From a virus (Duplodnaviria; Heunggongvirae; Uroviricota; Caudoviricetes), in IMG/VR virus record IMGVR_UViG_2713896782_000021: DNA of 8,264 nt. One strand, given 5' to 3'. The number at the start of each line of letters is the position of its first letter. Within the stretch, counting starts at the first letter, position 1. Below the pieces are notes generated by a model. It did no database searches. It was not told the origin of the DNA and worked only from the letters and a program-made list of their open reading frames with translations. A program made the translations under genes and the position numbers. Shown here piece after piece: positions 313 to 8,264 of this stretch.

Positions 313-1008
313 ATGAAAGAGATGATTTCTGTCGATCATGAAATATCCATGAGTAGTCTGGATTTTCTGAATAACATTATTAATCCAGCCCGGGCAGAAG
401 CCGGAGAAGTCCCTCATGAACCGCGTAAGTTTCTTGCAAAAATTGAGGATGAGCTAGAGCTTGATGGAACCGGAAAAAAATTCCGGTTAAACAATAACCA
501 GACAAGAACGGCATACTATGATCTGGATTTTGACCAGATGATGCTCGTTGGCATGAGGGAGTCAAAGGCCGTTCGTCGTTCTGTGCTGGCAAGACTCAAA
601 GCGATGCATGGTATTCAGATCCCCCGGACTTTACCTGAGGCGTTGCGATTTGCGGCAAAACTGGCTGAACAGAAAGCAGTGCTGGAAAATCAACTGGCAA
701 TAGCAGCGCCGAAGGCTGAATTTGTTGATAACTATGTTGAAGCATCTGGTCTGATGGGATTCCGGGAAGTTGCTAAGTTACTCGGTATCAAAGAAACCGA
801 TTTCCGGCTGTTTTTGTTGGAGAACGGAATAATGTATCGCCTCGCTGGAAAAATGACGCCTTACTCGCATCACCTGGATGCGGGGCGGTTTAGCGTGAAA
901 ACGGGCGAGGCGGGCAATGGTCATGCTTTTACGCAGGTTAAATTCACCCCAAAAGGTGTTCAGTGGATTGCTGGTCTGCTTGCTGCATGGAGAGCTACCG
1001 CAGCATGA
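313..1008 (+). CDS. Phage antirepressor (AntA-like N-terminal domain + KilA-C / ANT C-terminal domain), 231 aa
   Basis: ATG at 313 with AAGGA 7 nt upstream. The C-terminal half (ALRFAAKLAEQKAVLENQLAIAAPKAEFVDNYVEASGLMGFREVAKLLGI...FTQVKFTPKGVQWIAGLL) matches the KilA-C antirepressor domain pattern as I recall it; the N-terminal half (YYDLDFDQMMLVGMRESKAVRRSVL) resembles AntA-type DNA-binding domains. Family assignment is from memory, not a search. Confidence 0.8.
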   Translation: MKEMISVDHEISMSSLDFLNNIINPARAEAGEVPHEPRKFLAKIEDELELDGTGKKFRLNNNQTRTAYYDLDFDQMMLVGMRESKAVRRSVLARLKAMHGIQIPRTLPEALRFAAKLAEQKAVLENQLAIAAPKAEFVDNYVEASGLMGFREVAKLLGIKETDFRLFLLENGIMYRLAGKMTPYSHHLDAGRFSVKTGEAGNGHAFTQVKFTPKGVQWIAGLLAAWRATAA

Positions 1009-1102: not shown

Positions 1103-1234
1103 ATGTCAGACAAACTCATAATGCTGGCGAAGGGCCTTTGTGTAATCGTCGGTATTTCATTTTCACTAATGCTGGTTGTTCTTTTTCTTTCCATAACCTG
1201 GATGGCGTTGACTTCGGCAGGGCTGGTGGGGTGA
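1103..1234 (+). CDS. Hypothetical 43-aa single-helix membrane micropeptide (MSDKLIMLAKGLCVIVGISFSLMLVVLFLSITWMALTSAGLVG)
   Basis: Strong SD AAGGGG (1092-1097) 5 nt upstream of ATG 1103. One hydrophobic helix. Stop at 1232-1234 lies 11 nt before the Rz start. Found by manual translation. Confidence 0.45.
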   Translation: MSDKLIMLAKGLCVIVGISFSLMLVVLFLSITWMALTSAGLVG

Positions 1235-1245
1235 GCATAAACCGA

Positions 1246-1650
1246 ATGCTTTCCGCGTTNNNNNNNNNNNNNNNNNNNNNNNNNNNNNNNNNNNNNNNNN
1301 NNNNNNNNNCCGTTATTCTGCTGGTGGTCTGTGGTGCGCTTAGTCTGGGGCTGAATCATTACCGCGATAACGTCATCACCTACAAAGCGCAGCGCGATAA
1401 AAAAGCCAGAGAGCTGGAGCTGGCAAACGCAACCATTACTGATATGCAGGTGCGCCAGCGCGATGTTGCTGCGCTCGATGCAAAATACTCGAGGGAATTA
1501 GCCGATGCGAGAGCTGAAAATGAANNNNNNNNNNNNNNNNNNNNNNNNNNNNNNNNNNNNNNNNNNNNNNNNNNNNNNNNNNNNNNNNNNNNNNNNNNNN
1601 NNNNNNNNNNNNNGGCACAGGACTATATCCGCACTCAGTGCCTGAACTAA
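1246..1650 (+). CDS. Rz: Rz-family i-spanin (inner-membrane spanin subunit), about 134 aa; sequence interrupted by two N-masked runs
   Basis: The readable segment ([71 protein letters not shown]) is near-collinear with lambda Rz as I recall it ([57 protein letters not shown]). Start assigned to the in-frame ATG at 1246 just before the first N-run; the exact start is uncertain. C-terminus ...[11 protein letters not shown], stop at 1648-1650. Confidence 0.85.
1260..1309. other. Run of 50 ambiguous bases (N) inside the Rz 5' region
   Basis: Literal n characters in the sequence; the content cannot be known. Hides the Rz N-terminal/TM region. Confidence 1.
1525..1613. other. Run of 89 ambiguous bases (N) inside the Rz 3' region
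   Basis: Literal n characters; hides about 30 codons of Rz and the region where an embedded Rz1 o-spanin would be expected. Confidence 1.
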
Positions 1651-1982: not shown

Positions 1983-2315
1983 ATGAAAATGAAAAGAAAT
2001 CTTCCGTTAATTATTTTGTTGTCTTCTCTGGTTATGGGCTGTACGCAACATAAAACAGATATGCCCCGACAGTTGGTTAAGGCATTACCACAATATCCGG
2101 CCTATGCAGCGGCAAATTATATAAAGGGACGGGTTGATGTGAAGTTTGATATTGGTGCTGATGGTACTGTCACCCGAATTGAGTTTATCCGTTCAGAGCC
2201 GCACCATCTGTTTGATGAGCAGGTTGTAAAGGCGATGGCAAAATGGCGATTTGAGAAGGACAGGCCGCGTAAAGGCGTGAAGAAAACGTTTATCTTTAGT
2301 CCTTCTGCACCCTGA
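1983..2315 (+). CDS. Lipoprotein consisting of a TonB C-terminal domain (TonB_C-like moron protein), about 110 aa
   Basis: Signal peptide MKMKRNLPLIILLSSLVMG followed by Cys (lipobox-like VMGC), with Thr at +2. The mature part aligns with the E. coli TonB C-terminal domain from memory: ours PQYPAYAAANYIKGRVDVKFDIGADGTVTRIEFIRSEPHHLFDEQVVKAMAKWRFE versus TonB [56 protein letters not shown]. No TonB N-terminal TM helix and no Pro-rich spacer. Alternative start ATG 1989 has better SD spacing (GGGA 1979-1982). Confidence 0.8.
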   Translation: MKMKRNLPLIILLSSLVMGCTQHKTDMPRQLVKALPQYPAYAAANYIKGRVDVKFDIGADGTVTRIEFIRSEPHHLFDEQVVKAMAKWRFEKDRPRKGVKKTFIFSPSAP

Positions 2316-2446
2316 TTATTTCATCAGAAATTAATTATCACTCTGTTGTTATTCTGTACATTCCGGCTGGGTAAGTCTTGTTCCGCCGGGTATGAAGATG
2401 AAATATTGTTGGAGGACAGTGGGTACCTGCTCCTGTAACCGAACGT

Positions 2447-2647
2447 TCATTTCTCGTTATTTGTCATGCTGGCCGGACGCAGATGCGTTGCATCTGTTGC
2501 CAGCCTTCTCCTGCAGGCTTCAATAACCCACGCTGAAAAGTTACCGGAACCTTTATGTTCAAGGGCGATATTGATCTGTTCAATCATGTGATTGGGGAAA
2601 CGGATATTGCGGGTTGTGGTTCTGCGGGTCCGGTTTTTCGATGACAT
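2447..2647 (-). CDS. Small basic ribbon-helix-helix-like protein (resembles YlcI / DUF3950-type prophage proteins), 66 aa
   Basis: Start chosen at the internal Met (MSSKNRTRRTTTRNIRFPNHMIEQINIALEHKGSGNFSAWVIEACRRRL...) because the - strand carries AAGGAA 7 nt upstream of that ATG. Basic N-tail, then a beta-strand-like RNIRFP and two helices, suggesting an RHH fold. Similarity to YlcI/DUF3950 is from memory and unverified. Confidence 0.65.
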   Translation of the reverse strand: MSSKNRTRRTTTRNIRFPNHMIEQINIALEHKGSGNFSAWVIEACRRRLATDATHLRPASMTNNEK

Positions 2648-2688
2648 ATTTATTTCCTTTACTGATTGCCATATGACGGGGATTTTAC

Positions 2689-3054
2689 ATGGCTGAGCTT
2701 CGTACACTCCAGAGCAGAATCAAAACACTGAATACCCGACGGGTGAATATTCTGAAGGGTGAACAGCGTCGTGTCAGTGGCAGTGCACGTGTTTCCCTCA
2801 AGCGTCATATCTGGCTCAGGGATGCCGGGCAGTGCTGTCTCTGTGGTCGTGTGGTTGACCTCTGTGACAGTGAACTCGATCACCGAATTGCACTTCAGTT
2901 CGGTGGTGGTAATGAGGAGACGAATCTCTGGACGCTCTGTACCGAATGCCATCGACAAAAGTCTGCTCGTGAAGCGGCGGGTGGTATGCCGGACCCGACG
3001 CTGCCGGAGGTGTCCGGAGGTAGTGGCAGAGCGGACGACATCATCGGACTGTAA
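2689..3054 (+). CDS. HNH endonuclease (terminase-associated), 121 aa
   Basis: SD GGGGA 6 nt upstream of ATG 2689. Motifs CCLCG (CxxC)...ELDHRIALQFGGGNEETNLWTLCTECH give a His-Asn-His core with a second Cys pair (CxxCH), the classic HNH zinc-finger nuclease. It sits immediately upstream of the cos-like region and terS, the usual position in HK97-like cos phages. Confidence 0.85.
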   Translation: MAELRTLQSRIKTLNTRRVNILKGEQRRVSGSARVSLKRHIWLRDAGQCCLCGRVVDLCDSELDHRIALQFGGGNEETNLWTLCTECHRQKSAREAAGGMPDPTLPEVSGGSGRADDIIGL

Positions 3055-3057
3055 CCC

Positions 3058-3116
3058 GAGCGGGGGGGTATCATCCGGCGTAAAAAACGATCGCTCCGGA
3101 CACCGCGCCCCCTCTC
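3058..3116. repeat. Imperfect inverted repeat GAGCGGGGG ... CCCCCTCTC flanking about 41 bp (candidate cosN-type symmetric element)
   Basis: 3058-3066 GAGCGGGGG versus reverse complement of 3108-3116 (GAGAGGGGG), 8/9 match. Located between the HNH stop and terS. Assignment as cosN is inference only. Confidence 0.25.
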
Positions 3117-3144
3117 ACGCAGAGAAAAAATTCCCGTTTCAGGG

Positions 3145-3271
3145 CAGTTAACATGTTAACTGGCTGCCCGGGCATTTTTGCGGTTTTTATCTTTATTATT
3201 CAGTTTGTTGTGCGGAAAAAATGTTAACAGGCTTTTTCAGCAAATGTTAACCAGGCAGCAGTTAACATTTG
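3145..3271. repeat. Cluster of GTTAAC-AT palindromic motifs (candidate cosB / TerS-binding or regulator sites)
   Basis: 18-bp perfect palindrome CAGTTAACATGTTAACTG (3145-3162); ATGTTAAC at 3221-3228; 11-bp inverted arms CAAATGTTAAC (3241-3251) and GTTAACATTTG (3261-3271) separated by 9 bp. Five GTTAAC hexamers in about 125 bp immediately upstream of terS. Confidence 0.6.
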
Positions 3272-3342
3272 CGGCATGAGACGCCGGGAAAAATGGGCTG
3301 AACCATACCCGGCTGAGTGCGTTCTGGACCCGGGAGGAGGCT

Positions 3343-3906
3343 GTGCTGACAACGCAAAAACGAAAATTTGCGCTGGCGCTCATGTCCGGGAAAAACAAAA
3401 CAGCGTCAGCCCTTGCCGCCGGTTATTCGGCGAAGACAGCCAGGGTTAAAGGCTCGCAGCTGGCAAAAGATCCGGAGGTGCTTGCGTTTATAGCCCGTAA
3501 ACAGTGCGAGACGGTGGAGGTGGATGAGGTTCCTGTTTATCGGCAGAAAAAATCAGAGCCGGAGGATAAACCCCGTCGCCGTGAGGCGGCTGCAATACCA
3601 CAGCCGGACGAAACAAATCCGGAGATGCCACCGCCCGTGGTGATATCTCCTGGTATTGAGTATATGGAGGACGGTCTTCCCGATCCGGTGAAAGCGATGG
3701 GGCGTCTTCTGGTGGAGAACATTAATACCGACCCCAGGCTGGCGCTGGATGCGGCTTATAAGCTGGCGCAGTTCACGCACCACAAAAAAGGGGATGCCGG
3801 TAAAAAATCGGCAAAAGGTGACGCGGCGAAAAAAGCGGCTAACCGTTTTGCGGTGCCACCACCACCCCGCCTGGTGGTGAATAATGATAATGAGGGCAAC
3901 GGATGA
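3343..3906 (+). CDS. terS: Terminase small subunit (P27-family-like), 187 aa
   Basis: GTG start with GGGAGGAGG upstream. N-terminus MLTTQKRKFALALMSGKNKTASALAAGYSAKTARVKGSQLAKDPEVLAFIARKQ fits the conserved TerS helix-turn-helix N-terminal pattern (AGYS..tA...gs.L). Lys/Ala-rich C-tail. Stop overlaps the terL ATG (ATGA). Confidence 0.85.
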   Translation: MLTTQKRKFALALMSGKNKTASALAAGYSAKTARVKGSQLAKDPEVLAFIARKQCETVEVDEVPVYRQKKSEPEDKPRRREAAAIPQPDETNPEMPPPVVISPGIEYMEDGLPDPVKAMGRLLVENINTDPRLALDAAYKLAQFTHHKKGDAGKKSAKGDAAKKAANRFAVPPPPRLVVNNDNEGNG

Positions 3907-5564
3907 TACCTGTGTGGAGCACGGCCTGCCCGGACTGGGCAGAGCGCCTGAAAAAGGGGCTGTCGATTATTCCGGCTCCGATTTATCCGGAGCAGGCCGC
4001 ACATGCCCTGGCGATTTTTAAACAACTGCGGATTGTGGATGCACCGGGCAGCCCGACGTTCGGGGAGTCCTGCGCACAGTGGGTGTTTGACCTGGTGGCG
4101 GCCCTGTTTGGCTCCTACGATGCGCAGACCGGTGTACGCCATATCAAGGAAGTTTTTATCCTTATCCCCAAGAAAAACAGCAAGTCCACGCTGGCTGCCG
4201 GGATCATGATGACGGCGCTGTTACTGAACTGGCGGCAGGCGGCGGGCTACACCATTCTGGCCCCGACCGTGGAGGTGGCGGCTAACGCCTTCAACCCTGC
4301 CAGGGATATGGTACGACGGGACGATGATCTGGATGACCTCTGTCAGGTGCAGACACATATCCGGACCATCACCCACAGGGTGACGGACACCACCCTGAAG
4401 GTGGTGGCTGCCGATCCGAATACGGTATCCGGTATCAAGTCCGTGGGGACGCTGATTGATGAACTGTGGTTATTTGGCAAGCAGTACAAAGCGGAGGACA
4501 TGTTACGTGAAGCCATAGGCGGCCTTGCCTCCCGCCCGGAAGGGTTTGTGGTGTATACGACCACCCAGTCGAATGAGCCGCCAGCCGGGGTGTTCAGACA
4601 GAAACTGCAGTACGCCCGGGATGTCCGTGACGGCAAAATTCATGATCCGCACTTTCTGCCGGTGATTTTTGAGCATCCTCCTGAAATGGTGGAAAGCGGG
4701 GCTCACCTGCTGATGGAAAACCTCGCCATGGTTAACCCGAATCTCGGTTATTCGGTGGATGAGGCTTTTCTGTACCGGGAGTACCGTAAAGCCCGGGAGG
4801 CTGGTGAGGAAGCATTTCGTGGCTTCATGTCAAAACATGCCAATGTGGAAATTGGTCTTGCCCTGCGTTCTGACCGCTGGGCGGGTGCGGATTTCTGGGA
4901 GCAGCAGGGCAGGCGCGTCAGCCTGGACGATATCCTGCAGCGCGCTGATGTGGTGACGGTGGGGATTGACGGCGGGGGCCTGGATGATCTGCTGGGAATG
5001 TACGTGATTGGCCGTGACAGGGAAACCCGCGAATGGCTGGGCTGGGGCCATGCCTGGGCGCATGAAACCGCGGTGGTCCGACGGAAGAGCGAGGCGTCCC
5101 GGTTTCAGGATCTTGTTGCCTGTGGAGATATGACCATTGTCCGGCGTGTCGGGGATGACACGGCGGAAGTGGCGGAATATGTGCGTCGCATTCATGAGGC
5201 TGAGTTACTGGACCATATCGGTATTGACCCGTCAGGGGTGGGGCAGATTCTGGATTCACTGGCGGAAGCCGGGATCCCCGACGGAATTGTGGTGGGGATA
5301 AGCCAGGGCTGGAAACTGGGCGGGGCCATTAAAACCACCGAGCGCAAACTGGCTGAAGGGGTGCTGGTGCATGGTGACCAGCCCCTGATGGCCTGGTGTG
5401 TCGGCAATGCCCGGGTGGAGCCTAAAGGTAACGCCATTCTTATCACCAAACAGGCCAGTGGACGGGGAAAAATTGACCCGCTGATGGCGCTGTTCAATGC
5501 GGTCTCCCTGATGTCCCTTAACCCGGAACCGAAAAAGAAAGAATATGCGGTTTTTTTCATATAA
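3903..5564 (+). CDS. terL: Terminase large subunit (HK97-type ATPase plus nuclease), 553 aa
   Basis: Deviant Walker A-like LIPKKNSKSTLAAG; Walker B-like LIDELWLFG; ITTAG-like VVYTTTQSNE; MVNPNLGYSV; C-terminal RNaseH-like nuclease motifs VTVGIDGGGLDDLLG and GRGKIDPLMALFNAV. Translationally coupled to terS. Confidence 0.9.
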   Translation: MIPVWSTACPDWAERLKKGLSIIPAPIYPEQAAHALAIFKQLRIVDAPGSPTFGESCAQWVFDLVAALFGSYDAQTGVRHIKEVFILIPKKNSKSTLAAGIMMTALLLNWRQAAGYTILAPTVEVAANAFNPARDMVRRDDDLDDLCQVQTHIRTITHRVTDTTLKVVAADPNTVSGIKSVGTLIDELWLFGKQYKAEDMLREAIGGLASRPEGFVVYTTTQSNEPPAGVFRQKLQYARDVRDGKIHDPHFLPVIFEHPPEMVESGAHLLMENLAMVNPNLGYSVDEAFLYREYRKAREAGEEAFRGFMSKHANVEIGLALRSDRWAGADFWEQQGRRVSLDDILQRADVVTVGIDGGGLDDLLGMYVIGRDRETREWLGWGHAWAHETAVVRRKSEASRFQDLVACGDMTIVRRVGDDTAEVAEYVRRIHEAELLDHIGIDPSGVGQILDSLAEAGIPDGIVVGISQGWKLGGAIKTTERKLAEGVLVHGDQPLMAWCVGNARVEPKGNAILITKQASGRGKIDPLMALFNAVSLMSLNPEPKKKEYAVFFI

Positions 5565-5589
5565 CCCTGTTCACACTGTAACCATCATG

Positions 5590-5610
5590 AACCGCTGCGG
5601 CGGTTTTTTT
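5590..5610 (+). terminator. Candidate intrinsic terminator or attenuator between terL and the head genes
   Basis: Short GC stem ACCGC (5591-5595), loop TGCG, GCGGT (5600-5604), immediately followed by a T7 run then ATTTT. The stem is short (5-6 bp), so it may be a partial terminator that late antitermination reads through. Confidence 0.4.
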
Positions 5611-5627
5611 ATTTTCAGGAGGCTGAT

Positions 5628-7565
5628 GTGACTCTTAAACGGGCCTGTTCCCTGCTGACGGTGAAATCCTTCAGTGAGGATGAACGGGTGATCACCGGGA
5701 TTGCGTCAACGCCTTCTCCGGATCGGGATGGTGACATCCTGGAGCCGGAGGGCGCGGAGTTTGGCAGTGCGATCCCGTTTCTCTGGCAGCATGACCATTC
5801 CCGCCCGGTGGGGCAGTGTACGGTGCGCCGGGTCAGCGAAGGGCTGGAAATCACGGCAACACTGGTGAAGCCCGTACCGGATATGCCGTCGCAACTGGCT
5901 GCCCGGCTGGATGAGGTCTGGGCGGCCATTAAGACCGGGCTGGTCAGGGGGCTGTCCGTGGGCTTCCGTCCCCATGAATACACCTTTCTGGACGGAGGCG
6001 GACTGCATTTTCTGCGCTGGGAACTGATGGAGGTGTCTGCCGTCACCGTGCCCGCGAATGCGGAATGCACCATCCGGACCATTAAATCTTACGACCGCCC
6101 GTTTTCTGCCGCGTCCGGCAACCGGAAACCGGTGGTGAAAATCGCATCTTCTGCCGGCGCTGCGGCACAGTCAACAACCGTTTTTCATAAGGAAAAGACC
6201 ATAATGAATATTGGCGAACAGATTAAAAGTTTTGAAAACAAGCGTGCAGCGCTGGCAGCCTCCCTTGAGGAGGTCATGACCAAAGCCGCAGAGGAAGGGC
6301 GCACGCTGGATGTGGAGGAGGAAGAGCATTACGACAACACCGCAGCGGAAATCCGTCAGGTGGATGCGCACCTGAAGCGCCTGCGTGAACTGGAAGCCGG
6401 TAAGGCCGCCACGGCGCAGCCGGTGAAACAGGCCGGTAACGGGAATGTGGCCGCGGTGGCTTCTGCGCCGGTGATCCGTGTGGAGCAGAAACTGGATAAG
6501 GGGATTGGCTTCGCCCGCTTTGCCAAATCGCTGGCTGCGGCTAAAGGCGTCCGATCTGAAGCCCTGGAAGTGGCCCGTCGTCAGTATCCGGATGACAGTC
6601 GTCTGCATCATGTCCTGAAATCGGCAGTGGGCGCGGGGACCACCACGGATCCGCAGTGGGCAGGCAGCCTGTCTGAATATCAGGAATACGCACAGGACTT
6701 TATTGATTACCTGCGTCCGCAGACCATTATCGGGCGATTTGGTCAGGGCGGGATCCCTGCACTTCGTCAGGTGCCATTCAATATCCGTGTGCACGCCCAG
6801 GTGTCCGGCGGTGCTGCCGGCTGGGTGGGTGAGGGTAAGGCAAAACCCCTGACGAAGTTTGATTTTGAATCCATCACCTTCAGTCATGCGAAGGTGTCGG
6901 CCATTGCGGTACTGACGGAAGAATTGATCCGTTTTTCCAGTCCGGCTGCTGATGCACTGGTCCGTAATGCGCTGGCGGAAGCGGTGGTGGCGCGTCTGGA
7001 TACAGACTTTGTGGACCCGAAAAAAGCCGCAGTGGCAGATGTCTCCCCGGCGTCCATCACCCATGATGTGAAGGGCACGGCATCAACCGGTAACCCGGAT
7101 GCGGATGCCGAGGCTGCGTTTGGACAGTTTGTGGCAGCAAACCTGCAGCCCACCGGTGCGGTCTGGCTGATGTCCAGCACCAATGCCCTGGCACTGTCCA
7201 TGCGTAAAAATGCGCTGGGTCAGAAGGAATACCCGGACATGACCCTGCTGGGTGGCTCCTTCCAGGGGCTGCCGGTGATTGTCTCCCAGTACGTGGGTGA
7301 CCAGCTGGTGCTGGTGAATGCCCCGGATATTTATCTGGCGGATGACGGCGGCGTGGCAGTGGATATGTCCCGCGAGGCATCACTGGAAATGCAGTCTGAG
7401 CCGGGCGGCGACAGTACCACGCCGTCCCCGGTGGAGCTGGTTTCCATGTTCCAGACAGGCAGCGTGGCCATCCGTGCGGAGCGCTGGATCAACTGGCGTC
7501 GTCGCCGTACTGCGGCGGTGGCGGTGATCACCGGAGTGAACTACGGCAGTGCGTCCGGCGGCTGA
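5628..7565 (+). CDS. Prohead protease (S78/HK97 family) fused in frame to major capsid protein (HK97 fold), 645 aa
   Basis: GTG start with AGGAGG 5 nt upstream. N-terminal about 180 aa carry S78 protease motifs (WQHDHSRPVG, GLSVGFRP, ELMEVSAVTVPANAEC). From about residue 193 the sequence is a typical capsid N-terminal delta/coiled-coil region (MNIGEQIKSFENKRAALAASLEEVMTKAAEEGRTLDVEEEE...) followed by the capsid body. No stop codon between the two domains. Confidence 0.85.
   Translation: MTLKRACSLLTVKSFSEDERVITGIASTPSPDRDGDILEPEGAEFGSAIPFLWQHDHSRPVGQCTVRRVSEGLEITATLVKPVPDMPSQLAARLDEVWAAIKTGLVRGLSVGFRPHEYTFLDGGGLHFLRWELMEVSAVTVPANAECTIRTIKSYDRPFSAASGNRKPVVKIASSAGAAAQSTTVFHKEKTIMNIGEQIKSFENKRAALAASLEEVMTKAAEEGRTLDVEEEEHYDNTAAEIRQVDAHLKRLRELEAGKAATAQPVKQAGNGNVAAVASAPVIRVEQKLDKGIGFARFAKSLAAAKGVRSEALEVARRQYPDDSRLHHVLKSAVGAGTTTDPQWAGSLSEYQEYAQDFIDYLRPQTIIGRFGQGGIPALRQVPFNIRVHAQVSGGAAGWVGEGKAKPLTKFDFESITFSHAKVSAIAVLTEELIRFSSPAADALVRNALAEAVVARLDTDFVDPKKAAVADVSPASITHDVKGTASTGNPDADAEAAFGQFVAANLQPTGAVWLMSSTNALALSMRKNALGQKEYPDMTLLGGSFQGLPVIVSQYVGDQLVLVNAPDIYLADDGGVAVDMSREASLEMQSEPGGDSTTPSPVELVSMFQTGSVAIRAERWINWRRRRTAAVAVITGVNYGSASGG
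6204..7565 (+). CDS. Major capsid protein, possible independent product from internal initiation (453 aa)
   Basis: In-frame ATG 6204 preceded by AAGGAA (6189-6194, 9-nt spacer); the encoded N-terminus MNIGEQIKSFENKRAAL is a canonical HK97-type capsid start. Whether it is actually used is an inference. Confidence 0.45.
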   Translation: MNIGEQIKSFENKRAALAASLEEVMTKAAEEGRTLDVEEEEHYDNTAAEIRQVDAHLKRLRELEAGKAATAQPVKQAGNGNVAAVASAPVIRVEQKLDKGIGFARFAKSLAAAKGVRSEALEVARRQYPDDSRLHHVLKSAVGAGTTTDPQWAGSLSEYQEYAQDFIDYLRPQTIIGRFGQGGIPALRQVPFNIRVHAQVSGGAAGWVGEGKAKPLTKFDFESITFSHAKVSAIAVLTEELIRFSSPAADALVRNALAEAVVARLDTDFVDPKKAAVADVSPASITHDVKGTASTGNPDADAEAAFGQFVAANLQPTGAVWLMSSTNALALSMRKNALGQKEYPDMTLLGGSFQGLPVIVSQYVGDQLVLVNAPDIYLADDGGVAVDMSREASLEMQSEPGGDSTTPSPVELVSMFQTGSVAIRAERWINWRRRRTAAVAVITGVNYGSASGG

Positions 7566-7580
7566 GTCTGATAAGGAGGA

Positions 7581-7600
7581 CGGGAGGCGTGCGCCTCCCG
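7581..7600 (+). other. GC-rich hairpin immediately downstream of the capsid stop
   Basis: CGGGAGGC (7581-7588), loop GTGC, GCCTCCCG (7593-7600). No T-tract follows, so more likely an mRNA-stabilising or translational-spacing element than a terminator. Lies between a strong SD (AAGGAGG 7573-7579) and ATG 7610. Confidence 0.4.
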
Positions 7601-7609
7601 TAACAGGTT

Positions 7610-7831
7610 ATGGCAAAGATCCGATATCTGCAGGGCACGCATGATGCCCGGGCCGGGGATATCCGTGATGTGGCACAGCCGTGTGCGGAGGTGCTGGTTC
7701 GCCTGGGAAAGGCGGAGTACATCACGGTGCGACGTCCGGCAGGTCAGAAAAAGAAACGTGATGCGGAGCATGGCGAATGTGGAACCTTTTACGGCGAACC
7801 CGAAAAAACCAGAAATCAGGACGTGACGTAA
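7610..7831 (+). CDS. Hypothetical 73-aa protein between the capsid and portal genes
   Basis: ORF MAKIRYLQGTHDARAGDIRDVAQPCAEVLVRLGKAEYITVRRPAGQ... with SD-hairpin-ATG arrangement upstream. Overlaps the proposed portal start by 55 nt in another frame. No recognisable motif. Confidence 0.25.
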   Translation: MAKIRYLQGTHDARAGDIRDVAQPCAEVLVRLGKAEYITVRRPAGQKKKRDAEHGECGTFYGEPEKTRNQDVT

Positions 7832-8264
7832 GAGAGGCGGGCTGGACCAGCCTGTTTCAGGCGGTGGCTGAGCCCTTTTCCGGCGCCTGGCAGCAGGGCG
7901 TGAAAGCCGATCCTGAAGCCGTCCTCTCCTTTCATGCGGTGTTTGCATGTATTTCGCTGATATCCCAGGATATCGCCAAAATGCGGCTGCGTCTTATGCA
8001 GACGGATGCGCATGGGATACGCAGGGAAACGCGCCGGGGGGATATTGCCCGCCTCTGTCGTCGTCCCAACGCCCAGCAGAACCGCATCCAGTTTTTTGAA
8101 CTGTGGCTGAACGCCAAACTGCGTCATGGCAATACGGTGGTGCTGAAAATCCGTAATGCCCGGGGGCAGATCAAAGAACTGCGTATTCTGGACTGGAGCC
8201 GGGTTGAACCTCTGGTGGCGGATGACGGCGAGGTGTTCTACCGCATCACGCCGGACCGGAACTG
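7777..8264 (+). CDS. Portal protein (HK97-type), 5' portion; continues beyond the window
   Basis: ATG 7777 with GGAG 8 nt upstream. Translation MWNLLRRTRKNQ...AVLSFHAVFACISLISQDIAKM...RRPNAQQNRIQFFELWLNAKLRHGNTVVLKIRNARGQIKELRILDWSRVEPLVADDGEVFYRIT matches the portal N-terminal pattern (aCv..i..., rPN...f.e....LL.GNay..i.r..G.i.eL.pl.p..v......g...Y). Not in the ORF track because it has no stop in the window. Confidence 0.8.
   Translation, partial: MWNLLRRTRKNQKSGRDVREAGWTSLFQAVAEPFSGAWQQGVKADPEAVLSFHAVFACISLISQDIAKMRLRLMQTDAHGIRRETRRGDIARLCRRPNAQQNRIQFFELWLNAKLRHGNTVVLKIRNARGQIKELRILDWSRVEPLVADDGEVFYRITPDRN

Follow-up and report, generated by a model that had tools for sequence, protein, structure and literature searches.

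The window, by which we mean the whole 8,264-nt stretch of DNA analyzed here, very probably holds the block of packaging and head genes from a lambdoid, long-tailed Escherichia coli prophage of the 2851/BP-4795/Sakai Sp6-Sp9-Sp10-Sp12 type, in which the layout of these genes is fixed and ancient. On its + strand, it carries an HNH endonuclease gene, terS, terL, a protease/capsid fusion, a 73-aa ORF, and the portal gene (Table 1). The analysis establishes the gene identities, the fusion, and the order, which is conserved from the Enterobacterales to the Alpha- and Betaproteobacteria as well as in the Pseudomonas phage PAJU2. The sequence-only reading had called this head-gene order noncanonical, with a protease/capsid ORF directly following terL and a portal gene that starts only downstream of the capsid gene. 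The data bear out each of these points: the ORF list places the fusion 63 nt behind terL, the portal ATG at 7777 lies near the end of the 73-aa ORF, and all ORFs that had been described are present where they were placed. The window does not follow the canonical HK97 order of terS-terL-portal-protease-capsid with separate protease and capsid genes; its components are those of an HK97-like module, comprising an HK97-fold capsid, an S78 protease, an HK97-family portal, and a terminase pair accompanied by an HNH gene. Gene order is not a statistical feature, and reproducibility is therefore the relevant test.

Table 1. Features of the packaging and head-gene block, in window coordinates
Feature	Position	Strand	Support or remark
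HNH endonuclease gene, 121 aa	2689..3054	+	PF01844, E 7.5e-7; phrog_589, E 8e-45
Probable cos region, noncoding block of ~95 bp just after the HNH gene	3062..3160	.	cross-genus conservation
Five ATGTTAAC copies (3 forward, 2 reverse) in 122 bp, from the conserved block to terS	3147..3268	.	
terS, small terminase subunit, 187 aa	3343..3906	+	GTG start; PF03592, E 4.5e-8; phrog_641, E 2e-68
terL, large terminase subunit, 553 aa	3903..5564	+	PF03354, PF20441; phrog_9, E 2e-145
Terminator-like hairpin with T-run, within the 63 nt separating terL from the capsid ORF	5589..5616	+	weak evidence
Protease/capsid fusion, single ORF, 645 aa	5628..7565	+	GTG start; AGGAGG 6 nt upstream
Candidate internal RBS AAGGA (6189-6193) and in-frame ATG 6204 (Met193)	6189..6206	+	
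AAGGAGG (7573-7579), then directly a 9-bp GC-rich hairpin (7580-7601)	7573..7601	+	folding
Small conserved ORF, 73 aa	7610..7831	+	phrog_829, E 4e-39
Portal gene of the HK97 family, truncated by the window end after 162 codons	7777..8264	+	ATG start

HNH endonucleases of the packaging-associated type adjoin cos and terS in HK97-like cos phages, and an HNH gene upstream of terS is kept in 20 loci related to the window. The noncoding block between the two genes is conserved in aligned loci from E. coli, Enterobacter, Kluyvera, Atlantibacter, and Citrobacter, far better than the flanking terS protein (~40% identity). The linear record of PAJU2 opens immediately ahead of terS; a putative endonuclease gene and one more small ORF lie close before its end. 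By analogy with these phages, cos probably lies within the conserved block, where the HNH protein and terminase would cut it. All five matches to ATGTTAAC fall between this block and terS, as compared with 0.13 expected, and none of 200 shuffles reached five; these copies are possible binding sites for terS or an accessory protein. The start of terL overlaps the stop of terS, and its product matches PDB entry 6z6d, named "Terminase large subunit" (E 3e-9). A scan for promoters and terminators gave nothing above chance overall: the hairpin in the gap behind terL is the only + strand match of the terminator scan within 2300-8264, where the total site count did not exceed that in shuffles.

The ORF behind terL matches Peptidase_S78 (PF04586) at aa 48-152 with 34.7 bits (cut-off 21) and Phage_capsid (PF05065) at aa 386-635 with an E value of 5e-14. 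It scores 78.3 bits against TIGR01554 (cut-off 27.5) and stays below the cut-off of TIGR01543 (46 against 59). The match to phrog_617 spans the full length (E 3e-261, residues 1-639 on profile positions 7-626), and the ORF has the other traits of that fusion lineage as well, being one full-length ORF directly after terL with the portal downstream past the small ORF(s). From the N terminus, it comprises an S78 prohead protease (~aa 1-157), a variable linker (aa 158-192), a coiled-coil scaffold- or delta-like segment (~aa 193-262), and an HK97-fold major capsid protein extending to aa 645, with the secondary-structure layout taken from a low-confidence AlphaFold2 model (13-sequence alignment, mean pLDDT of 41). 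His55 and Ser110 (H55 and S110) are invariant in the 13 fusion sequences and would correspond to the HK97 catalytic residues. All 120 homologs listed have the fusion as one ORF of ~645 aa (644-650 aa), as do most of the best 150 representatives clustered at 50% identity in having a single ORF. The family contains 1,181 cluster representatives with E <= 1e-30 and is found in phages of Salmonella, Stenotrophomonas, Burkholderia, Ralstonia, and Moraxella too, and the exact fusion protein of the window occurs on at least 1000 contigs. The 645-aa ORF is best named a protease/capsid fusion rather than a plain "major capsid protein."

The fused ORF may also be nested: a second, conserved start inside it, Met193, would yield a 453-aa capsid protein without the protease. 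In the 13-sequence alignment, Met193 is invariant and sits beside the variable, indel-rich linker, and five cluster representatives start at query residues 193-196. An AAGGA- or AGGAGG-like motif precedes the internal Met by ~6-10 nt in 24 of 24 loci, in differing codon registers; in PAJU2, the motif is AGGAGG. The Shine-Dalgarno pairing energy predicted at Met193 is only ≈-5.6 kcal/mol, which ranks at about the 15th percentile among positions in frame, and it is unremarkable within each locus. The argument turns on conservation across loci and codon registers. The predicted strength of the candidate internal RBS is only moderate, and a prohead built of full-length chains alone is a possible alternative.

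The hairpin that follows the capsid gene begins 15 nt past its stop codon and has a folding energy of -22.3 kcal/mol (z -3.2). Single-sequence folds place a hairpin at the equivalent position in 17 of the 18 loci. Its stem occurs in four or more distinct sequences, and a T-run follows it in several loci; the E. coli hairpin has no T-run. Single-sequence folds were used because MAFFT misregistered the divergent stems, and RNAalifold run on the alignment containing these misaligned stems gave four invariant pairs and no compensatory changes. The 73-aa ORF behind the hairpin overlaps the portal start by 55 nt. It is conserved at the protein level and in equivalent position across the Enterobacterales, its exact sequence is present on at least 1000 contigs, and searches of Pfam and NCBIfam with it returned no match.

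The portal assignment, which in the sequence-only reading was based on an N-terminal fragment, stands. The fragment matches Phage_portal (PF04860) with an E value of 1.4e-22 and 80.7 bits (cut-off 39.1), portal_HK97 (TIGR01537) with 112.5 bits against a cut-off of 112.05, and phrog_2271 with an E value of 3e-110, so that the homology search did not turn up the other outcome considered beforehand, namely a terminal ORF that is not a portal. In relatives with 99.3% identity, the gene is full length; one such full-length portal scores 272.6 bits and matches the solved portal-protein chains 9lbn and 8cez. With the 162-aa fragment as query, the only homologs retrieved were partial proteins at the ends of contigs, and full-length portals were judged from a cluster look-up and from the loci rather than from that search.

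Beyond the window, nearly all related loci carry a fiber-like gene behind the portal, followed by a gp6-like adaptor. An additional G joins the fiber-like gene in frame to the portal in the 2851 lineage; which allele, fused or separate, accompanies the window is not readable from it, as it ends at portal codon 162. Phase variation at this G-run was considered and rejected, since the G6 allele resides mostly on a haplotype group of its own, separated from the G5 alleles by at least 27 differences per 800 nt, with one exceptional G5 allele on a G6 haplotype. The protein model of the post-portal gene has a pLDDT of 60, and its weak fold matches (TM <= 0.17) are enriched for proteins with chitin-binding modules and for collagen-like or tail-fiber proteins, an enrichment that is suggestive only. 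The stable in-frame fusion in the 2851 lineage suggests that the fiber-like and portal proteins may touch in the virion. Public records name the post-portal gene inconsistently, as "portal protein" or "gp6-like head-tail connector," for which the fused allele is the probable cause.

Identity of the region is 99.3% to Stx2c phage 2851 and 97.2% to BP-4795. It is matched by 94 phage records, and 2,092 of the 5,426 complete E. coli genomes contain a match, at a median of two and up to 13 places per genome. Outside this species, we compared 28 loci that range from the Enterobacterales to the Alpha- and Betaproteobacteria and include Rhizobium, Methylobacterium, Haematobacter, Brucella, and Diaphorobacter. 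All 28 share terL, the protease/capsid fusion, small ORF(s), and the portal, and across three proteobacterial classes and protein identities of 47-80%, the order and the small intergenic gaps are alike. This synteny comparison, together with PAJU2, where the order is also kept, settles in favor of a "distinct lineage," one of the options that had been raised for the unusual order. Judged from sequence comparison, placing the capsid before the portal is the standard and has long been conserved in a very common family of E. coli prophages and in related phages.

Within that standard layout, the copy in the window could still derive from a defective prophage that makes no particles of its own and depends on co-resident prophages. 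We consider this unlikely, and it would qualify our main reading rather than contradict it. Such dependence would be in keeping with O157-type genomes, which carry several near-identical copies of the module, and with the finding that most Sakai lambdoid prophages are flawed in some way and complemented by others (PMC2669165). Some relatives have a terL disrupted by IS629 or a pseudogene portal, and the window itself ends inside the portal gene. However, every head and packaging ORF within the window is intact, with completeness readable up to portal codon 162, and no exact alleles are commoner than those of its capsid-fusion and small-ORF proteins. The late regions of the nearest relatives are complete, containing a full-length portal, an Ad1 adaptor, head closure, gp10-like, and tail terminator genes, as well as tail tube, chaperone, tape measure, and tip (J) genes.

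The sequence-only reading had also entertained a module rearrangement or mosaic, in which recent recombination inserted the capsid genes between terL and the portal. Lambdoid phages are indeed mosaics, and in the relatives, lambda-like tail genes accompany HK97-like head genes, but a recent junction of this kind is ruled out for practical purposes by the synteny kept throughout the 28 loci and PAJU2, and the compositional break looked for at the junctions was not found; we give this explanation very little credence. An equally improbable proposal is that the window belongs to a capsid-forming phage satellite (cf-PICI-like) that has its own packaging and head genes and borrows tails. The cf-PICI satellites carry an HNH-terS-terL-protease-capsid-portal-adaptors gene set, to which the HNH-to-portal block would correspond. 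A satellite would be small and would encode heads and packaging but neither tails nor lysis; against it stand the lambdoid late genes found upstream in the window (an antirepressor, an Rz-like spanin, and a YlcI/YnfO-family gene) and the tail genes downstream in relatives: one relative matching 98% of the window at 99.3% identity runs on into a complete lambda-like tail module, and the records of the phage relatives, 48-94 kb in length, include Q, stx, lysis, and tail genes. Finally, an assembly artifact joining nonadjacent segments has next to no probability, for although the module is multicopy and hard to assemble, because many drafts break inside the portal gene and leave partial portals at contig ends, the terL-capsid-portal adjacency is found in 372 complete E. 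coli genomes and 91 phage records covering at least 80% of the query, and thousands of independent assemblies, complete genomes among them, exclude a misassembly.

For the prophage head module that we favor, the features described above suggest how the order might work. The fused ORF would yield a full-length protease-scaffold-capsid chain, to which initiation at Met193 would probably add a protease-free capsid chain, and both chains would co-assemble on the portal dodecamer. The protease would thereby enter the prohead covalently rather than via a targeting tail and would then remove itself and the coiled-coil segment. By analogy with HK97, this N-terminal coiled-coil segment of the capsid part presumably plays the scaffold (delta-domain) role. 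The hairpin behind the capsid gene may stabilize the capsid message or partly end it, and damping of this kind would suit the portal because it is needed in far fewer copies. We tentatively combine these elements into a joint reading, as a possibility rather than an expectation: the gene order would set expression ratios, through the nested pair at Met193 and a hairpin by which expression of the portal and later genes is lowered or set apart, and, separately, the post-portal gene would encode a portal-associated, fiber-like protein with a chitin-binding-type end domain that touches the portal.

Taken by itself, the noncanonical order matters little, as this is how head genes are normally arranged in one of the commonest prophage types of pathogenic E. 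coli. For annotation, the lesson is that rearrangement, a satellite, or misassembly should not be called from gene order alone. The nested start, the post-capsid hairpin, and the one-G portal-fiber fusion, in the roles that we infer for them, could interest researchers working on capsid assembly.

The arrangement is already known, being annotated in BP-4795, 2851, and PAJU2. Phages 2851 (Pankowvirus) and BP-4795 (Marienburgvirus) and the Sakai Sp6/Sp9/Sp10/Sp12-type prophages are 95-99% identical to the window at the nucleotide level over 2600-8264. The genes and their order are alike in 2851 and BP-4795, where the products are annotated as "major head protein/prohead protease" and "portal protein." Compared with 2851, nothing of substance differs in the head genes inside the window, whereas the upstream accessory genes do differ, with an antirepressor and a TonB_C gene in the window where 2851 has KilA. 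A deviating organization of the head region has been noted for the O157 Sakai prophages Sp6, Sp9, Sp10, and Sp12 (PMC2669165). According to that study, Sp10 is one of the three Sakai prophages that conserve every morphogenetic gene, and long-tailed particles whose heads are elongated are reported there. In other literature, nothing specific on the gene order turned up.

PAJU2 (Detrevirus) has terS, terL, the fusion, small ORFs, the portal, a homolog of the post-portal gene (with an ATGA overlap), and the adaptor in common with this family. Its fusion protein shows 48% identity over the full length and is annotated as "structural protein; prohead protease fused capsid protein." PAJU2 differs in host and immunity region, and two small ORFs separate its capsid and portal genes as opposed to one here. 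A similar architecture is already a curated category in NCBIfam, NF045541 ("prohead protease/major capsid protein fusion protein"), but the ORF in the window is not a member, scoring 54 bits against a cut-off of 525 and matching only model positions 50-294.

In lambda, C (protease) and Nu3 (scaffold) are nested, in-frame head genes. If Met193 is used, the fusion would likewise give two in-frame products with a common C terminus, one with and one without the protease. Unlike in C/Nu3, what the two products share would be the capsid protein itself rather than a separate scaffold, and internal initiation is here a predicted event.

With HK97, the window shares the protein families of terL, protease, capsid protein, and portal, as well as an HNH gene adjoining terS, at low sequence identity to the HK97 proteins. 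The PDB entries matched by terL (6z6d) and by the portal of a relative (8cez) are ones that we take to be HK97 entries, the search output naming the molecules only. In HK97, the portal gene precedes separate protease and capsid genes, whereas here the two are fused and the portal comes after them, with a small ORF added in the window and a fiber-like gene added in its relatives.

The sequence-only reading had placed a protease/capsid ORF directly after terL, with a small ORF and then the portal gene downstream, and this order proved correct by ORF listing and family scans, which also showed that the plus-strand gene block is continuous across the window. The large terminase subunit matches a solved chain (6z6d) deposited as 'Terminase large subunit'. 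The same reading had flagged its portal call as based on a fragment, and the call is now confirmed by PF04860 (E 1.4e-22), TIGR01537 (112.5 bits against a cut-off of 112.05), and phrog_2271 (E 3e-110). By these family matches the terminal ORF is recognisable as an HK97-family portal even from the fragment, and a relative's portal matches the solved portal-protein chains 8cez and 9lbn. In public collections, contig ends have yielded many incomplete portal proteins of roughly the fragment's 162 codons, consistent with assemblies breaking inside a multi-copy prophage module.

Features of the window and the gene following the portal in three related loci
Feature	Coordinates	Strand	Remarks
Antirepressor gene	313-1008		ORF listing and family scans
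Rz-like spanin ORF	1138-1650		split by masked N-runs at 1260-1309 and 1525-1613
TonB_C-domain lipoprotein-like gene, 113 aa	1974-2315		PF03544 at E 6e-15
YlcI/YnfO-family gene	2447-2707	-	
HNH endonuclease	2689-3054	+	
terS	3343-3906	+	
terL	3903-5564	+	
645-aa fusion ORF	5628-7565	+	Peptidase_S78 aa 48-152, Phage_capsid aa 386-635
73-aa ORF	7610-7831	+	
Portal ORF	ATG 7777 to window end	+	runs off end at 8264, codon 162
Post-portal gene, BP-4795 (L002)	15540-16925		
Post-portal gene, related locus L005	6264-7307		
Post-portal gene, related locus L156	6054-7058		

The TonB_C gene, possibly a moron, lies between the lysis and packaging genes, and its PHROGs family label, 'Rz-like spanin', misfits the Pfam domain. 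A terminator-like hairpin with a T-run (5589-5616), the sole plus-strand match of the scanned region, lies within the 63 nt that separate terL from the capsid ORF; in that scan, the total count of promoter- and terminator-type sites was no higher than chance.

Over positions 2600-8264 the window shares 99.3% identity with Stx2c phage 2851 and 97.2% with Stx1 phage BP-4795. There are matches in 94 phage records, almost all of which are Stx-converting phages or others derived from E. coli prophages. Matches occur in 2,092 of 5,426 complete E. coli genomes, at a median of 2 and a maximum of 13 places per matching genome, and at least 80% of the whole window is covered in 372 of the 5,426. The exact 645-aa and 73-aa proteins are each present on at least 1000 contigs. 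In 2851, BP-4795, and the NCCP 13946 chromosome, the block goes on with a full-length portal, then gp6-like adaptor, head-closure, gp10-like, and tail terminator genes, and further on a major tail protein, chaperones, and tape measure; the NCCP 13946 chromosome, the stretch reaching furthest, continues to lambda-like tip genes, up to J. This continuation is the complete late region of a lambdoid siphophage.

It is possible, though less likely than not, that the window's copy belongs to a defective prophage; the window does end inside the portal gene, and O157 genomes carry several copies that are in part defective and complement one another (PMC2669165), but every ORF inside the window is intact. 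Sp10 is one of three Sakai prophages with all morphogenetic genes conserved, and long-tailed particles with elongated heads have been shown (PMC2669165). Two observations contradict another option that had been raised, a satellite with its own capsid genes: lysis-region genes lie upstream in the window, and a near-identical relative has a tail module.

Using an alignment of the fusion protein, we fetched 28 loci from one-genome-per-species contigs and mapped the proteins of the window and of phage 2851 onto all of them. The fusion ORF is followed by the portal gene in 28 of 28, and terL lies immediately 5' of the fusion in every locus that reaches far enough upstream and has a recognisable homologue. 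The set includes members at 47-57% identity from Proteus, Arsenophonus, Phlomobacter, Rhizobium, Methylobacterium, Haematobacter, Brucella, Dichotomicrobium, and Diaphorobacter. A library-wide HMMER search returned 1,181 cluster representatives at E <= 1e-30, the best 150 of which are mostly 630-680-aa chains aligned end to end, and the phage collection holds the same fusion protein in Salmonella phage FSL SP-016, Pseudomonas phage PAJU2, and phages of Stenotrophomonas, Burkholderia, Ralstonia, and Moraxella. With the order kept in the 28 loci and in PAJU2, and the fusion protein itself widespread, the layout is an old, stable property of a large lineage. Of the options raised, only that of a distinct lineage holds; a recent module rearrangement or mosaic junction is excluded by the conserved synteny. 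Misassembly is excluded by complete genomes with the same adjacency.

Beyond the window, the portal of nearly all related loci is 441-479 aa long, and a separate gene of ≈190-560 aa comes next, overlapping the portal gene at ATGA. In the product of this second gene an N-terminal helix is invariant, repeats of ≈27 aa (IPxPxDGKD) vary in number, and a C-terminal beta domain of ≈140 aa is conserved; the beta domain gives sub-threshold CBM_5_12 matches in 6 of 6 divergent homologues and has two chitin-binding-type motifs. Collagen repeats and resemblance to tail fibres are further features of the Diaphorobacter homologue, and structure searches gave weak matches in the same direction. Public names conflict ('portal protein', 'gp6-like head-tail connector', 'FIVAR', 'Carbohydrate binding domain'); we regard the protein as probably fibre-like. 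Lengthening of a G-run by one G, 22 nt upstream of its ATG (TTCAGGGGGAT to TTCAGGGGGGAT; ≈15540-15550 in the 2851 locus versus ≈15520-15543 in that of BP-4795) joins it to the portal, giving the 859-aa 'portal' of 2851 and NCCP 13946; BP-4795 and other genera have two genes with the ATGA overlap. The fused form has 6,387 members and the separate form 2,223 by cluster look-up, the IMG/VR loci comprise 41 fused and 83 separate alleles, and both are common in E. coli. The fused allele is largely confined to a haplotype group of its own and is therefore a lineage, not a switch.

At the packaging end, the HNH gene stands next to terS, an adjacency also found in HK97. A non-coding block of ≈95 bp (3062-3160) directly after the HNH gene is kept across E. 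coli, Enterobacter, Kluyvera, Atlantibacter, and Citrobacter far better than terS itself. The linear PAJU2 record opens shortly upstream of terS and closes with two ORFs, namely a putative endonuclease gene and a further small ORF. HNH beside terS is the arrangement of HNH-dependent cos phages, as described in PMC3592412. This adjacency, the conservation, and the PAJU2 record ends indicate that cos probably lies within the block. In other genera terS begins right after the block, and the E. coli lineage has ≈185 extra bases there; five copies of ATGTTAAC follow the block within 122 bp (3147-3268), with 0.13 expected.

A 9-bp GC hairpin (7580-7601; -22.3 kcal/mol, z -3.2) lies fifteen nt past the capsid stop, and 17 of 18 loci have a hairpin at the equivalent site; the stems show at least four different sequences, and several carry a T-run. 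A role in stabilising the capsid message, or in partly terminating it, is possible and would agree with the much lower copy number at which the portal is needed. AAGGAGG (7573-7579) abuts the stem on its 5' side, 30 nt away from the ATG of the small ORF, and the hairpin, if formed, would draw this site nearer that start codon. The small ORF has a conserved 44-aa core and a basic tail, and Pfam and NCBIfam scans found no known family for it; in other genera it is 51-58 aa long and ends at the portal start, and the 73-aa E. coli form reaches 55 nt into the portal gene.

Three parts can be recognised in the fusion ORF: the protease domain, in which H55 and S110 are invariant; a variable linker (aa 158-192) with many indels; and Met193, likewise invariant, together with the long helical hairpin predicted after it (aa 195-261), which in a low-confidence model resembles the scaffold-like N-terminal segment of HK97-type capsid proteins. 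A Shine-Dalgarno-like motif (AAGGA, AAGGAGG, or AGGAGG) lies ≈6-10 nt before the Met193 codon in 24 of 24 loci (6189-6206 in the window), falling in different codon registers and encoding different amino acids across them. Its predicted pairing energy is only moderate. Because of this motif, a complete AGGAGG upstream of the PAJU2 counterpart, and five cluster representatives that begin at query residues 193-196, Met193 is a possible internal start, from which a capsid chain without the protease would be made as a gene nested within the fusion; alternatively, heads could arise from full-length chains alone. These side inferences are modest leads for capsid-assembly work.

Nested initiation at Met193 would follow the two-product logic of lambda C/Nu3, and the head and packaging proteins belong to the families of HK97. 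The arrangement itself is ordinary and already described. PMC2669165 remarks on the deviating head region in Sakai prophages Sp6, Sp9, Sp10, and Sp12. NCBIfam has a curated protease/capsid-fusion category, although the 645-aa protein, at 54 bits against a cut-off of 525, is a non-member of that model, and the public records of BP-4795, 2851, and PAJU2 annotate fusion and portal in the same order. PAJU2 runs terS, terL, 'structural protein; prohead protease fused capsid protein', two small ORFs, and portal, followed by a 334-aa ORF and then adaptor-like genes.
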